DNA from: Nitrosopumilaceae archaeon
Lineage (GTDB): Archaea > Thermoproteota > Nitrososphaeria > Nitrososphaerales > Nitrosopumilaceae
Length of the DNA: 64,000 nt
Direction of reading: 5' to 3'
NCBI GenBank assembly: GCA_965208905.1
Contig: OZ242365.1
Span: 672,001 to 736,000, forward strand
The translations under genes were made by a program, and so were the position numbers. The notes beneath the pieces were generated by a model. It was given only the letters and a program-made list of their open reading frames with translations. It was not told the DNA's origin and did no database searches. Below are positions 2,772 through 7,206 of this stretch, one piece after another. Every line of letters begins with the position of its first letter. The stretch's first letter is position 1.

Positions 2772-3113
2772 ATGAAACGCATAGAAGCTATCGTTCAAGC
2801 GGACAAGCTGAAATCTGTTGTGGACGCACTCGAAGGAAAGGTAGGCGGATTTATAGCCTTTGATGGAAAAGGACGAGGATCCGGCGCTAGACCCACCGTT
2901 AGGATGGGAAGAGGTACAGGTACCATGAAGGCAGACTTCAATACGGTTGCCAGTATTGTATCGATAGTAGATGACTCTGATGTTAAAGCTGTCACAGATG
3001 CAATAACTGAGGCTGCTTATACTGGAACCGCTGGTGACGGAATAATTGTAATCTCTACCATAGACGATGTTGCGAATATCACTACTAAGAAAAAGGGATC
3101 AGAGGCCCTTTAA
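2772..3113 (+). CDS. glnB: Nitrogen regulatory protein P-II (GlnB/GlnK family)
   Basis: MKRIEAIV start, GKGRG, AYTGTAGDGIIVIS and C-terminal GSEAL; 113 aa. Confidence 0.93.
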   Translation: MKRIEAIVQADKLKSVVDALEGKVGGFIAFDGKGRGSGARPTVRMGRGTGTMKADFNTVASIVSIVDDSDVKAVTDAITEAAYTGTAGDGIIVISTIDDVANITTKKKGSEAL

Positions 3114-3270
3114 CTCCTTTTTATTAAATAGAATCGCCCCACGTATGAGGGGGGCACTACTGATCTTGGTATCTGCGCATTAGTAGATAAGCCACTATTC
3201 CAGAAACAATTGCGCCCATGGCTATCATATCGTACATACATACAGTATGATGGCACCCATTAAAAATTAT

Positions 3271-3294
3271 GGGAATTATAGTGATGGGTAGGAT
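3271..3294 (+). repeat. IS1595 terminal inverted repeat (cargo-side end)
   Basis: Reverse complement of 5378-5401 with one mismatch. Confidence 0.92.
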
Positions 3295-3691
3295 CATTTA
3301 ATAATCCCAAACGGTGTAGTATAGCAAATTCAGATCCAAGGAGGTGAACGGGTAAACAGGATGCAAAAAATGCGGTTTCATATGCAAGTGTGCGATTTAA
3401 TCATCAACCGAGGTGTCATGAATGTAAAAGGGAATGAAACCAATAGAATACACGATAGACACAGCCCGTGTATTTGAGGACATGCAGAATCAAACAGATG
3501 ACATCCACACAGCCCTACAAGTTTCATGACACCTCACCTTCCTTTATATTGTATATAGTGGTTTTGATCATTTAGATACCGTAGCATTATATGTCGCGTA
3601 TCGTATTGTACAATGCCATGCGGGTTTAGTAGAAACTTTCACTCGTAAATTCATTAACGATATCCGTATCATGGCCTCTGCGGGTATCATA

Positions 3692-3973
3692 TCATGTCTT
3701 ATAACGCATGTCCAAAACTCGCACTATACTATGTGTTATGTGCAGCATGGTTATCTTGCGTGGAGGCCGTGACTCAAATAAGGCCCTCTCAGACTCTAAA
3801 TCTTTGACTTTCTGCAACAATTCCTTCAAGTATGACATGGTTATATCGTCTGCCCGTAATTGATGTGTGTCTTTTGCCTTGTTGTATGTTGTCCCTCTGA
3901 ATGATGTTACTGTTTCTATGTTGTCCCTGGGATATTCTGGCAAATTCTCTAGTATGTCCCGTTCCAATGTCAT
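3692..3973 (-). CDS. Hypothetical passenger protein (93 aa) inside IS1595
   Basis: ATG-start ORF with TTTATA box (plus 3997-4002) 24-29 nt upstream; amphipathic segment YLKELLQKVKDLESE. Confidence 0.55.
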   Translation of the reverse strand: MTLERDILENLPEYPRDNIETVTSFRGTTYNKAKDTHQLRADDITMSYLKELLQKVKDLESERALFESRPPRKITMLHITHSIVRVLDMRYKT

Positions 3974-4322
3974 AATGCGAGTTGTATGACAGTCTGTATA
4001 AACTCTATCAATGTTTATAATACAACCACAAGGGCAATGATATGTCGCACGGGTTCATTAATGCTCGTTAAATCGTTGCTGCCGTCCATATTGCGACCTC
4101 TGTGGACGGCAAAATCTAAGATATAGCATTACATTTTTGTGATAAAGTTGGTTTACTATGTATTAACTTTGTACAACTAAATGCAAGTAAACATAGAGTT
4201 ATAACCATAATCTAAGTATATACAAACAATGGTATAACAGTTCCATGTTACTGCTTCAGATACCATGAGCGGTAACTGTCGCTGCCCCTGTAGATTGTGA
4301 GCTAGGGGCAGCATCATCCTTT

Positions 4323-4405
4323 GTCGTGGTGGTCTAGTCTGGTAGGGCGGCGGTCTCAAAAATCGCTCATTCACAATGGCGCAGGTTCAAATCCTGTCCA
4401 CGGCG
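4323..4405 (+). tRNA. Class II (long variable arm) tRNA, anticodon CAA (Leu) on a Ser-like body
   Basis: Acceptor GTCGTGG/CCACGGC plus G73; D-arm GTCT-AGTCTGGTA-GGGC; anticodon arm GCGGT-CTCAAAA-ATCGC (CAA at 4357-4359); variable arm T-CATT-CAC-AATG-G-C; T-arm GCAGG-TTCAAAT-CCTGT. Confidence 0.88.
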
Positions 4406-4415
4406 CACTAAACAT

Positions 4416-5366
4416 CTAACTTATCAGTTGCTCATATGTCAACCGCTTGCCAATCATGCCCCTTGCCAAACTTATCATCATGTCTTCAGTGTCTAGATTT
4501 CGTATGTTTAAACGGCCAGCAAACTCATTGACATACCTGTGCAGGTGCTTTGCCGACACATGATGGAATGTACCGTAATAGCCACGCTTTAACAAAGCCC
4601 AAAAGGATTCTATGCCGTTAGTGTGCGCCATGCCGTTGACATATTGACTTACCGAATGATTAACCACTTCGTGATTTGGTAAACTCTTGTATGCTCTATG
4701 CTCATCCGTATAATGGGTACTGCCCGACTTGACATTGTCTTTAATAAATTTGCCAAGTCGAGCAGATGTGGTCTCATTTACGGGTTCGGCTCTTATATCA
4801 CCTGTCTTTCTATCTTTGATACCTACAACTGCGGTTTTGTTTGCACCGCCTTGACTGTGGGGTTGTTTCTTTGTACTGTGTTTGTTCTTTTCCTTGCCAC
4901 CGATATAGGTCTCATCTATTTCGACTGGACCTTCCAGTTTGTCAATACCTGCCAATGTTTGCCATGATTCACGCAAACGCTGAACCATGAACCATGCTGA
5001 ACTTTGGGATATGCCTAAGTCTCTGTGTAGTTTCATTGATGATATACCCTTGACATTAGTCATAAACTGGTATGTTGCGATTGCCCAATGCTGGTATGAT
5101 ATTTTGGATTGTTGCATTACAGTGCCGACTTTGACTGAAAAATACGTTTTGCACTTACTACAATAGTATGGCATCTTTGGATGTTTACATTCTATGGTAT
5201 CATCATGTTTGCAGTTGGGACATTTACGGCCATCTCTCCATATGTGGCTTTCAAACCACTTCATGGATGTATGATTGTCTGGAAACATCTTTAGTAAATC
5301 TATTAGTGTGATTCCTTCCCTGTGTGATTTGCCTGGTGCTTGTTGCATGTAATACCTTAGATTCAT
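4416..5366 (-). CDS. IS1595-family DDE transposase
   Basis: N-terminal Zn ribbon (CPNC...CSKC), KGISS HTH region, EIDETYIGG, TDE, TNGIESFW, YVNEF. True start may be ATG 5348, given the TATA-like sequence at 5373-5378. Confidence 0.95.
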   Translation of the reverse strand: MNLRYYMQQAPGKSHREGITLIDLLKMFPDNHTSMKWFESHIWRDGRKCPNCKHDDTIECKHPKMPYYCSKCKTYFSVKVGTVMQQSKISYQHWAIATYQFMTNVKGISSMKLHRDLGISQSSAWFMVQRLRESWQTLAGIDKLEGPVEIDETYIGGKEKNKHSTKKQPHSQGGANKTAVVGIKDRKTGDIRAEPVNETTSARLGKFIKDNVKSGSTHYTDEHRAYKSLPNHEVVNHSVSQYVNGMAHTNGIESFWALLKRGYYGTFHHVSAKHLHRYVNEFAGRLNIRNLDTEDMMISLARGMIGKRLTYEQLIS

Positions 5367-5377
5367 AGGGCATATAA

Positions 5378-5401
5378 ATCCTATCCATCACTATAATTCC
5401 C
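5378..5401 (-). repeat. IS1595 terminal inverted repeat (transposase-proximal end)
   Basis: Partner of 3271-3294, followed by the AAAATTAT duplication. Confidence 0.92.
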
Positions 5402-5457
5402 AAAATTATCTATGTGTTGTATGCATGAAAAAAAGGTAGAACAGTGAGTTTGAGTAT

Positions 5458-6177: not shown

Positions 6178-6747
6178 CTACTCTTTTTGGTCGTATAACA
6201 TAAGGCCCTTCTCTTCTAGAATGGCATGTAGGTTGTGAACTGATCTATATACGTCACTCTCTTTTTTTGCACCCGTGCAGACTAGCTTGCCCGAGGCAAA
6301 GAGCAGTATTACCGTCTTTGGGTCTAACATCCTGTGTATCAACCCTGGAAATTGTTCTGGTTCGTACATACTTCGAGGTAACATTCGGGCGGACTTTTCC
6401 AAATGTATACGTCCACCCAAATTTATGGCGGCGACCATATTTTGTACAGTCACCACCGCATCTTTTTTTATATCTATGCCGCCTTTTCGGAGCCTCTGCA
6501 CTACTGTTCGTACAGCCTCTAAGGACATCTCTTCTGACTTTGCACCAGTACAGACCATCTTACCAGTACGAAATATCAGCGTAGCCGTCCGAGGATTATG
6601 CAGTCTAAAGACAAGTCCAGGAAACTGTTCTGGATTGTACTCTGTCTGAGGAAACTTGTCGTTTATCTCATTGAGATCTATACTTTGATCTACTGTAGCT
6701 GATGCAACTACGTTTTCTACGCTGACGTGAGGTTTTGTCTGTGCCAT
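6178..6747 (-). CDS. tbp: TATA-box binding protein
   Basis: Two TBP repeats (ENVVAS..YNPEQFPGL..LIFRTGKMVCTGAK; YEPEQFPGL..LFASGKLVCTGAK). Start placed at MAQTKP. Confidence 0.97.
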   Translation of the reverse strand: MAQTKPHVSVENVVASATVDQSIDLNEINDKFPQTEYNPEQFPGLVFRLHNPRTATLIFRTGKMVCTGAKSEEMSLEAVRTVVQRLRKGGIDIKKDAVVTVQNMVAAINLGGRIHLEKSARMLPRSMYEPEQFPGLIHRMLDPKTVILLFASGKLVCTGAKKESDVYRSVHNLHAILEEKGLMLYDQKE

Positions 6748-7206
6748 ACCTTGTTTGTATATTAACACCATTATATAGACAAATCTATTATTGCAGAGAT
6801 TTTCTCAAAGTTTATCGTAAAACTGGTTTTTTATATGACTTTATACGCAATTGGTCCCCCAAAGATCTAGACGTTGTGCATAGATGTAGGCTATGTACAT
6901 ATCTAGATTGGTCGTAAGGTCTACAAACCTACTGTGTATCATTTTGCACCATTCAAGAGGAACAACTGGACTGACAGACTATCTCTTGATGTGTAGATGG
7001 TTTATGGGCGGAACCTATAATCATACCGTTGTGGACGCACTCTTCTACACCGCCACTCTGACCATTATAGTAAACAAGGCGACCCCTTCACATATACAAT
7101 AAATGATATCACACACCACACTGCATCCATTAAATTCTGCATTGTATCATTTGAGGCAGCAACTAAGACTTCTATTACAAAACCACATAATCACAGATGT
7201 CTTTCA

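Follow-up and report, generated by a model that had tools for sequence, protein, structure and literature searches.

Naturally occurring tRNAs in which anticodon and amino-acid identity conflict are rare. Changes of the genetic code draw on them as raw material, as does deliberate mistranslation. The case of the CUG-Ser yeasts is eukaryotic and chromosomal, a fixed change of the genetic code with a matching adaptation of codon usage. Some members of the IS1595 family of insertion sequences (IS) carry passenger genes. Bacterial allo-tRNAs are described as combining serine identity with diverse anticodons, of which UAU is the most common, and as residing near transposon and toxin-antitoxin genes; those tested insert serine at leucine codons in E. 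coli and are toxic upon induction (PMC5389517, PMC7609411). In this report, we describe a tRNA gene in a 64,000-nucleotide stretch of DNA (“the window”) from a Nitrosopumilaceae archaeon. It has a leucine anticodon, CAA, on a body with what appear to be serine-type identity elements, and it travels as a passenger in an IS1595-family transposon of 2.1 kb, two insertions of which are present in this lineage. The reading that we favor, and to which we give an even chance of being correct, is that it is a mobile, probably serine-accepting missense tRNA by which UUG is read as serine.

The determinants that separate the two amino acids have been studied in other archaea. Leucine identity is reported to require A73 and specific bases of the variable arm, the latter requirement having been shown in H. 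volcanii, and the exchange of A73 for G73 turns leucine into serine identity; G30-C40 is a weaker serine determinant in M. barkeri (PMC9976931). Serine identity itself is described as G73 plus a long variable arm, with the anticodon ignored (PMC9976931, PMC7609411).

The window tRNA and its transposon

The window is C1:672001-736000 of a genome that consists of one 2.21-Mb contig. This genome encodes an archaeal AmoA (386.7 bits), and the nearest named relatives of the transposase described below come from Cenarchaeum and Nitrosopumilaceae assemblies; on these grounds we take the host to be an ammonia-oxidizing archaeon of that family.

The sole tRNA that ARAGORN predicts in the window spans 4323-4406 and is labeled tRNA-Leu(CAA). 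The Rfam tRNA model RF00005 matches 4323-4405 from end to end with 47.9 bits (gathering score, 29), and at E <= 1 nothing else between 3200 and 5450 matches Rfam. The acceptor stem is composed of G1-C72, U2.G71, C3-G70, G4-C69, U5-A68, G6-C67 and G7-C66, and the discriminator, G73, is position 4405. The D-region reads CUGGUAGGGCG, with a D-stem of G10-C25, U11.G24, C12-G23 and U13.G22, a D-loop of AGUCUGGUA, and G26. Pairs G27-C43, C28-G42, G29-C41, G30.U40 and U31-A39 form the anticodon stem, and the loop is C U CAA A A, base 4358 being A35. U44 is followed by a variable arm with a 4-bp stem (CAUU/AAUG), a 3-nt CAC loop and one unpaired G before C48, and the T-stem is G49.U65, C50-G64, A51-U63, G52-C62 and G53-C61. 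The four stems thus contain exactly five G-U pairs and no mismatch, just as an initial annotation made from the letters alone had stated; its remaining structural details (G73, the first three acceptor pairs, the D-region, G26/T44, the variable stem and C48) are all borne out by the sequence and by the ARAGORN drawing. The universal nucleotides U8, A14, G18G19, U33, A37, TTC and A58 are intact. Neither broken stems nor a loss of universal nucleotides, the marks of a tRNA pseudogene, is seen.

For comparison, ARAGORN lists 48 tRNAs in the host genome; it misses an intron-bearing tRNA-Leu(UAA), with two introns, which only our leucine covariance model recovered and which we added. The host has five canonical leucine tRNAs (UAG, CAG, GAG, CAA and UAA) and four canonical serine tRNAs (GCU, UGA, CGA and GGA). 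In a structure-guided alignment, all four of the latter have G73, a D-loop without the 20a/20b insertion, a 4-bp variable stem and one unpaired base before C48. Every one of the five leucine tRNAs carries A73 and a D-loop insertion of the CAAA type; its variable stem has 3 bp and an NNAG loop, and UU stands before C48. At each point that distinguishes the two groups, the window tRNA has the serine pattern, and both the leucine-type variable arm and the 20a/20b insertion are absent from it. The initial annotation had proposed a serine-type body, and the alignment upholds it. The anticodon, CAA, is not a serine anticodon (NGA or GCU).

Scoring points the same way, though less cleanly. Of two genus-specific covariance models, the serine model (R2) gives the window tRNA 64.5 bits and the leucine model (R3) 51.4 bits, so that in this comparison, of the kind that the initial annotation had advised with tRNAscan-SE 2 isotype models, leucine is not the best. 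Canonical leucine tRNAs obtain 74-110 bits on the leucine model, although these are in its training set or identical to members of it. A position weight matrix (PWM) comparison that leaves out the anticodon loop places the window tRNA 18.6 bits toward serine, where left-out canonical serine tRNAs lie at +49 to +87 bits and canonical leucine tRNAs at -39 to -75 bits. The variable-region term of that score, -18.4 bits, points toward leucine; it stems from gap pattern and length rather than from stem geometry, and we accord it little weight.

The window tRNA shares 67% identity (54/81 aligned positions) with the host tRNA-Ser(CGA) and 52-60% with the other host class II tRNAs. With tRNA-Ser(CGA) it has in common G73, G1-C72, U2.G71, C3-G70 and the one unpaired G before C48, and the anticodon stem-loops of the two are only two transitions apart (G35A and C40U), which makes descent from a Ser(NGA)-type tRNA plausible. 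The D-arm, variable stem and T-stem are unlike those of tRNA-Ser(CGA), whose gene has a TATA box and no upstream hairpin and is chromosomal, non-mobile and conserved in position across the genus. The initial annotation had also considered a drifting tRNA-Ser(CGA). A decaying duplicate of the host gene does not fit the 67% identity, the mobility of the window gene or its membership of a structurally conserved family with many anticodons (see below). We regard the window tRNA as serine-like in its apparent identity elements, yet atypical for a tRNA-Ser; it represents a third kind of class II tRNA.

The tRNA lies in a 2131-bp element (Table 1) that bears the hallmarks of the IS1595 family: a DDE_Tnp_IS1595 transposase, terminal inverted repeats (TIRs) and an 8-bp target-site duplication (TSD). 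The transposase gene is intact and convergent with the tRNA, its stop codon falling 10 nt past G73. A second copy of the element carries an identical tRNA and has a direct repeat of 8 bp of its own, AAAAAAAT, on either side. Window positions 3262-5405 (2144 bp) recur at C1:1211847-1213990 with 99.86% identity, and the two copies differ only at window positions 3267, 3268 and 5384, none of them in the tRNA. In the sister genome G307 both insertion sites are empty: its flanking sequences, 95-98% identical to those here, meet directly, overlapping by 7-8 nt. Four DNA runs from one sample, probably the source of the assembly and thus not independent of it, gave contigs that span 3269-5256 without a deviating letter; over the element these contigs are about two times as deep as over the flanks, and their loose ends match the sequence beside the second copy. 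The tRNA is, then, cargo of a transposon that inserted twice in this lineage.

Table 1. Locations of the window tRNA, its transposon and the related features discussed in the text. Bare ranges are window positions; C1 is the host contig, G000 the host genome, and other G and L labels are our handles for genomes and loci.
Feature	Location	Strand	Evidence or remark
Class II tRNA, anticodon CAA (4357-4359), G73, Ser-type D-arm and variable arm	4323..4405	+	ARAGORN, Rfam, alignment, covariance models
GC-rich hairpin with a stem of 9-10 bp and a loop of ~14 nt; its end lies 10 nt from the tRNA start	4281..4312	+	homologous to the hairpin before most family members
IS1595-family transposon with cargo, 2131 bp	3271..5401	.	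TIRs, TSDs, second copy, empty sites in G307
Left TSD, 8 bp, AAAATTAT	3263..3270	.	flank reading; site present once in G307, flanks joined over 8 nt
Left TIR, 24 nt	3271..3294	+	23/24 complementary to the right repeat
Open reading frame (ORF) in cargo, 93 amino acids, family unrecognized, may not be a gene	3692..3973	-	profile searches
IS1595-family DDE transposase, 316 amino acids, intact	4416..5366	-	Pfam PF12762 (2.2e-40), PF12760 zinc ribbon (6e-4)
Right TIR	5378..5401	-	complementary to the left repeat
Right TSD, 8 bp, AAAATTAT	5402..5409	.	flank reading
Second copy of the element	G000:C1:1211856-1213986		identical tRNA
Host tRNA-Leu(CAA), ordinary	C1:1161672-1161769		A73, intron-bearing
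Host tRNA-Leu(UAA), canonical	G000:C1:2088737-2088857		two introns; leucine covariance model
Host tRNA-Ser(CGA)	G000:C1:102673-102755		G73
Host SerRS, bacterial-type	G000:C1:208945-210192		TIGR00414, 491 bits
Host LeuRS, archaeal	G000:C1:908352-911138
341-nt UAA modules (G276, G433)	L074:3939-4279, L048:1439-1779, L081:3808-4148, L056:1308-1648
Two 90-nt class II G73 tRNAs, Phe anticodon GAA (G433)	L224:3978-4067, L225:3881-3970	+, -

The remainder of the cargo is obscure. The 93-residue ORF has no match in Pfam or NCBIfam and one weak match in PHROG (E 8e-4); a sub-threshold Atlas lead (0.84) to ISL3 fragments was set aside after a scan of the genome for PF01610 came back empty. Scans with Pfam, NCBIfam, PHROG and Rfam revealed no recognizable gene in the rest of the 1.1 kb. 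In a DNA search of 201 genomes with the whole element, the cargo was not found in the 200 other genomes of the order; only the transposase part occurs elsewhere. Two other full-length relatives of the transposase in the host genome (75-77% identical) align only to that part of the element, and the ARAGORN list places no tRNA near them. An exact 14-mer search found no TIRs around the other host IS1595-type transposase genes, whose ends are too diverged for so crude a test.

Outside the host, the closest relatives of the transposase are in three Nitrosopumilaceae/Cenarchaeum assemblies (64-67% identical). The next (44-57%) come from many bacterial metagenome-assembled genomes (MAGs), including Acidobacteriota, Binatia, Dehalococcoidia, Thioclava and Poriferihabitaceae, which suggests that archaea and bacteria of one type of habitat have this IS lineage in common. 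In the 80 scanned loci (L102-L181), the only tRNAs with a comparable mismatch are a 95-nt, allo-tRNA-like class II tRNA with anticodon UAU, some 860 nt from an IS1595 transposase in an Acidobacteriota MAG (L127:4788-4882), and a 93-nt leucine-like class II tRNA (A73, CCA) with the aspartate anticodon GUC, near an IS1595 transposase in a Dehalococcoidia MAG (L166:1804-1896).

The element sits in the intergenic space that follows the gene of a P-II-like protein (2772-3113, +); this gene, a dihydrouridine synthase (Dus) gene (585-1547, +) and that of TATA-binding protein (6178-6771, -) are ordinary host neighbors. Elsewhere in the genome, a weak class I tRNA-like sequence (G000:C1:1664528-1664600; L353:3029-3100) scores 38.7 bits with Rfam and has the anticodon loop ACU, with A34; an overlapping ARAGORN call beside it reads “Pro(CGG) with 3-nt intron”. 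Most likely this sequence is a tRNA that has degenerated or is otherwise odd.

A family of odd class II tRNAs

The window tRNA is one of a family. By an “odd” tRNA we mean one of class II shape with a non-serine anticodon, so that the absence of serine anticodons from the family is true by definition. The first look-alikes emerged when 401 genomes of the class were searched at the DNA level, followed by ARAGORN and Rfam; seven of them were used to build a covariance model (R1), which was run on 10 genomes of the genus and, at strict thresholds that would miss weaker members, on 151 of the family and 151 of the order. In all, the family comprises 30 loci in 11 genomes from three genera of one family of ammonia-oxidizing archaea: seven of the ten genomes of the window’s genus, two of genus g8 and two of genus g3. 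Model R1 detected odd tRNAs only in genera g1 and g8 among the 151 genomes of the family, the g3 members having come from the 401-genome class sample. Among the 151 genomes of the order, its top matches outside the family were all ordinary tRNA-Ser.

A loose pattern running from the D-arm to the T-loop was used to search two other collections. In viral_contigs it retrieved one ordinary tRNA-Ser(UGA), in a tRNA array, and no clear family member. The 80 loci listed for metagenome_contigs contained 83 ARAGORN tRNAs of 80 nt or more, of which 43 were ordinary tRNA-Ser and the remaining ones listed were mainly intron-bearing class I tRNAs (Gly, Thr, Val); no clear family member was among the 80 loci listed.

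The anticodons of the 30 members are diverse: 13 are for leucine (CAA 3, UAA 7, GAG 2, AAG 1), 10 for isoleucine (UAU 5; GAU 5, two of them in 8-nt loops), two for phenylalanine (GAA), two for glycine (ACC), and one each for arginine (CCU), lysine (CUU) and proline (CGG). G73 is present in 28 members and A35 in 25. A single G35-to-A transition separates the anticodons CAA, UAA and GAA from CGA, UGA and GGA, respectively, which are serine anticodons. In the genome G417, two GAU members (L079:4001-4082, -; L084:4001-4082, +) have an 8-nt anticodon loop with an extra A after position 32, before U33-GAU. In G433, two GAU members (L080:4001-4084, -; L080:4375-4458, +) are divergent and 290 nt apart, with a further, weak tRNA-like match (29.4 bits) in the interval.

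The fold is maintained across this diversity, as the initial annotation had supposed for the window tRNA from its wobble pairs. Among 27 distinct sequences, 95.4% of stem cells are paired and 19 of 24 pairs have changed on both sides; none of 500 shuffles reached this pairing, and slid controls were 42-60% paired, although the alignment was fitted to the covariance model, which favors structure. U33, R37, A38, A14, G15, T54-T55-C56, A58 and G1-C72 are present in all 27, U8 in 26 and G73 in 25. The window tRNA and all 27 have the canonical 7/5 arrangement of acceptor and T-stem. G30-C40, the weaker serine determinant, is retained in many members.

A second common feature lies upstream. Ahead of most G73 members stands a GC-rich hairpin, the stem of which varies in sequence while its pairing is kept; many of these hairpins share a loop motif, and in most cases a TATA-like box then follows at a distance of some 25-30 nt from the tRNA. 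In the 70 nt upstream of the gene, 15 of 24 odd tRNAs have a hairpin of dG <= -14 kcal/mol, as against four of 22 canonical class II tRNAs, counts drawn from related genomes that are not independent. The window hairpin occurs in its genome only upstream of the two tRNA copies, and it matches no described RNA family (Rfam, E <= 1). Its spacing to the tRNA recurs, with a similar spacer, before a UAA member in G433 and a GAU member in G385. Because this short-spacer form is shared with two other species, it is an inherited variant and not a fresh deletion; perhaps it is transcribed from further upstream.

Mobility, too, extends beyond the window element. In G276 and G433, a UAA member resides in a sharply bounded 341-nt module, made up of about 190 nt of upstream sequence including the hairpin, the tRNA and about 60 nt downstream, which is found at two unrelated sites in each genome; no inverted repeats or target duplications were seen at the module ends. 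With eight transposase queries, a homolog was found within 1.5 kb of 16 of the 30 odd tRNAs and of one of 22 canonical class II tRNAs. This contrast is overstated because the queries were drawn from such neighborhoods, and here again the genomes are related. Further, in G433 an IS1595-type terminal repeat is found about 45 nt outside each of the two GAA tRNAs, and 46 nt downstream of each is a same-strand IS1595 transposase that is 64-66% identical to that of the window; of these transposase copies, one seems to be truncated and one to have a frameshift. This is a second, independent and differently built IS1595 arrangement that carries a tRNA.

Possible roles of the tRNA

How might a tRNA of this kind act? 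From its sequence we infer that it would be charged with serine and would decode UUG. In the mechanism that we envision, the gene would be transcribed, perhaps by way of a promoter that precedes the hairpin, and its transcript processed; the host’s single, bacterial-type SerRS, blind to the anticodon, would serylate it; and the product would reach the ribosome and compete with the canonical tRNA-Leu(CAA) for UUG, so that serine would replace leucine. Expression would have to be weak or conditional for the host to tolerate it, and the transposon would spread the tRNA regardless of any benefit to the host.

Several observations weigh against this reading. UUG is common in the host (about 20% of leucine codons and 16.4 per 1000 codons, from a crude set of ORFs), and an active Ser-tRNA(CAA) should thus be harmful; any serine-inserting activity must therefore be low or conditional. 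No TATA-like box lies 25-35 nt upstream of the window tRNA, where the host’s canonical tRNAs have one and where the hairpin is found instead. Its serine-model score of 64.5 bits is far below those of canonical serine tRNAs (81-103) and no higher than the range of canonical leucine tRNAs (45-64), and the weaker serine determinant G30-C40 is G30.U40 in it. Some members of the family have A34 anticodons (ACC, AAG) or 8-nt anticodon loops, which are odd for archaeal decoding. Finally, the two copies are nearly identical, and there has therefore been no time for selection within this genome.

The alternatives must be judged against the same evidence. An appreciable if unlikely one is that mobile elements keep a tRNA-shaped RNA for a non-decoding job, be it as a signal for processing by RNase P/Z, as a promoter or insulator that it would form with the hairpin, or as a read-through antisense RNA against the convergent transposase mRNA. 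The hairpin that is conserved before most members is in keeping with such a job, as are the convergent position of the window tRNA, 10 nt from the transposase stop, and the excess, overstated by the choice of queries, of transposases near odd tRNAs; the G433 tRNAs, placed between a TIR and a transposase start 46 nt away, would suit co-transcription and processing. A similar view of the inactive allo-tRNA(UAU) group is expressed by Mukai et al. (PMC5389517). A role in processing or as a promoter, however, needs none of U33, R37, A38, G73 and a serine-type variable arm, yet all of these are kept, and it leaves unexplained why A35 occurs in 25 of the 30 anticodons. The arrangement of tRNA and transposase also varies between elements. 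Alternatively, and in our estimation improbably, the gene is a neutral hitch-hiker without present function: a relic, silent or almost so, of a mobile tRNA module which the transposon picked up. The missing TATA-like box fits this idea, as do the lack of recognizable genes in the rest of the 1.1-kb cargo, the absence of the cargo from the 200 other genomes of the order, and the youth of two copies that cannot yet show selection. The spacer that recurs in G433 (UAA) and G385 (GAU) tells against it, for that arrangement has been inherited and kept; so do the complete lack of stem mismatches in the window tRNA and the structural constraint on the family as a whole.

That the gene is a genuine extra tRNA-Leu(CAA), charged by the host’s single, archaeal LeuRS and boosting the decoding of UUG, we regard as very unlikely. 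The name given by ARAGORN derives from the anticodon; leucine anticodons do occur in 13 of the 30 family members, and the variable region totals 14 nt, as in the canonical leucine tRNAs. Against these stand the G73 in place of the A73 of all five canonical leucine tRNAs, A73 being the key archaeal leucine determinant (PMC9976931); the lack of the leucine D-loop insertion, of the NNAG variable loop and of UU before C48; the low score on the leucine model; and sister tRNAs with the same body that carry Ile, Phe, Lys, Gly, Arg and Pro anticodons. Nor is the window gene the genome’s only ordinary tRNA-Leu(CAA), a circumstance under which the initial annotation would have withdrawn its proposal, for the A73 copy exists (Table 1). 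The chance that the anticodon is an assembly or sequencing artifact and truly reads CGA is negligible, and nothing was found in its favor. With regard to base 4358, which the initial annotation had wished to see confirmed, CAA stands in both genomic copies, the contigs of the four runs (same sample) show no other letter at 3269-5256, and CAA or UAA is found also in relatives from other genomes.

The family lends itself to a broader and distinctly doubtful extension of the missense reading. The genus may carry mobile, diversifying “mistranslator” cassettes: serine-accepting tRNAs under the control of a hairpin, with anticodons that have come, in most cases through G35-to-A, to match hydrophobic codons (Leu, Ile, Phe). 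When turned on, these cassettes would poison translation. Such a tRNA toxin could serve mobile-element addiction or a defense of the abortive-infection type, and it would have been spread by IS1595 and other transposons. If this were true, the cassettes would place serine into protein cores when switched on.

Significance and comparison with known systems

A pattern unites the family: anticodons one step from serine NGA, almost all of them with A35, behind a conserved upstream hairpin. Callers that rely on the anticodon label all of its members as tRNA-Leu, tRNA-Ile, tRNA-Phe and so forth, and the family therefore matters for annotation. The persistence, spread and cost of a missense tRNA in a wild genome, a question of long standing, also become testable, for which G307, with both insertion sites empty, is a natural control.

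In full-text searches of the literature we found no archaeal counterpart described, although the supplementary tRNA lists of Mukai et al. might include archaeal sequences; nor does the portion of the tRNAscan-SE 2.0 paper covered here describe one. The full-text searches likewise yielded no tRNA cargo in IS1595 elements and no transposon-borne missense tRNAs.

The window element resembles other IS1595-family insertion sequences in its DDE transposase with an N-terminal zinc ribbon, its TIRs and its 8-bp target duplications; it differs in that it carries a tRNA gene, one in which anticodon and identity do not match. With the tRNA-Ser(CAG) of the CUG-Ser yeasts, which is reported to have caused proteome-wide replacement of leucine by serine, the window gene shares the placement of a serine-type tRNA on a leucine codon (PMC2246281). 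In contrast to that tRNA, it is a recent mobile insertion, and its host still uses UUG heavily for leucine.

Bacterial allo-tRNAs appear to be the closest known analog of the family. Both kinds have the serine identity elements, a long variable arm and G73, together with many non-serine anticodons, among which UAU and the leucine anticodons are prominent, and both are linked to transposon-related genes. The allo-tRNAs are defined by an 8/4 or 9/3 arrangement of acceptor and T-arm (a 12-bp branch) and come from bacteria (Clostridia, Proteobacteria and Acidobacteria), whereas the family described here is archaeal and has the canonical 7/5 arrangement. Further, a conserved upstream hairpin accompanies the window gene, and its status as cargo is demonstrated by TIRs, TSDs and empty sites. 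The mismatch of identity and anticodon thus appears here in archaea, on an ordinary 7/5 cloverleaf, and in one case as the proven cargo of a transposon.

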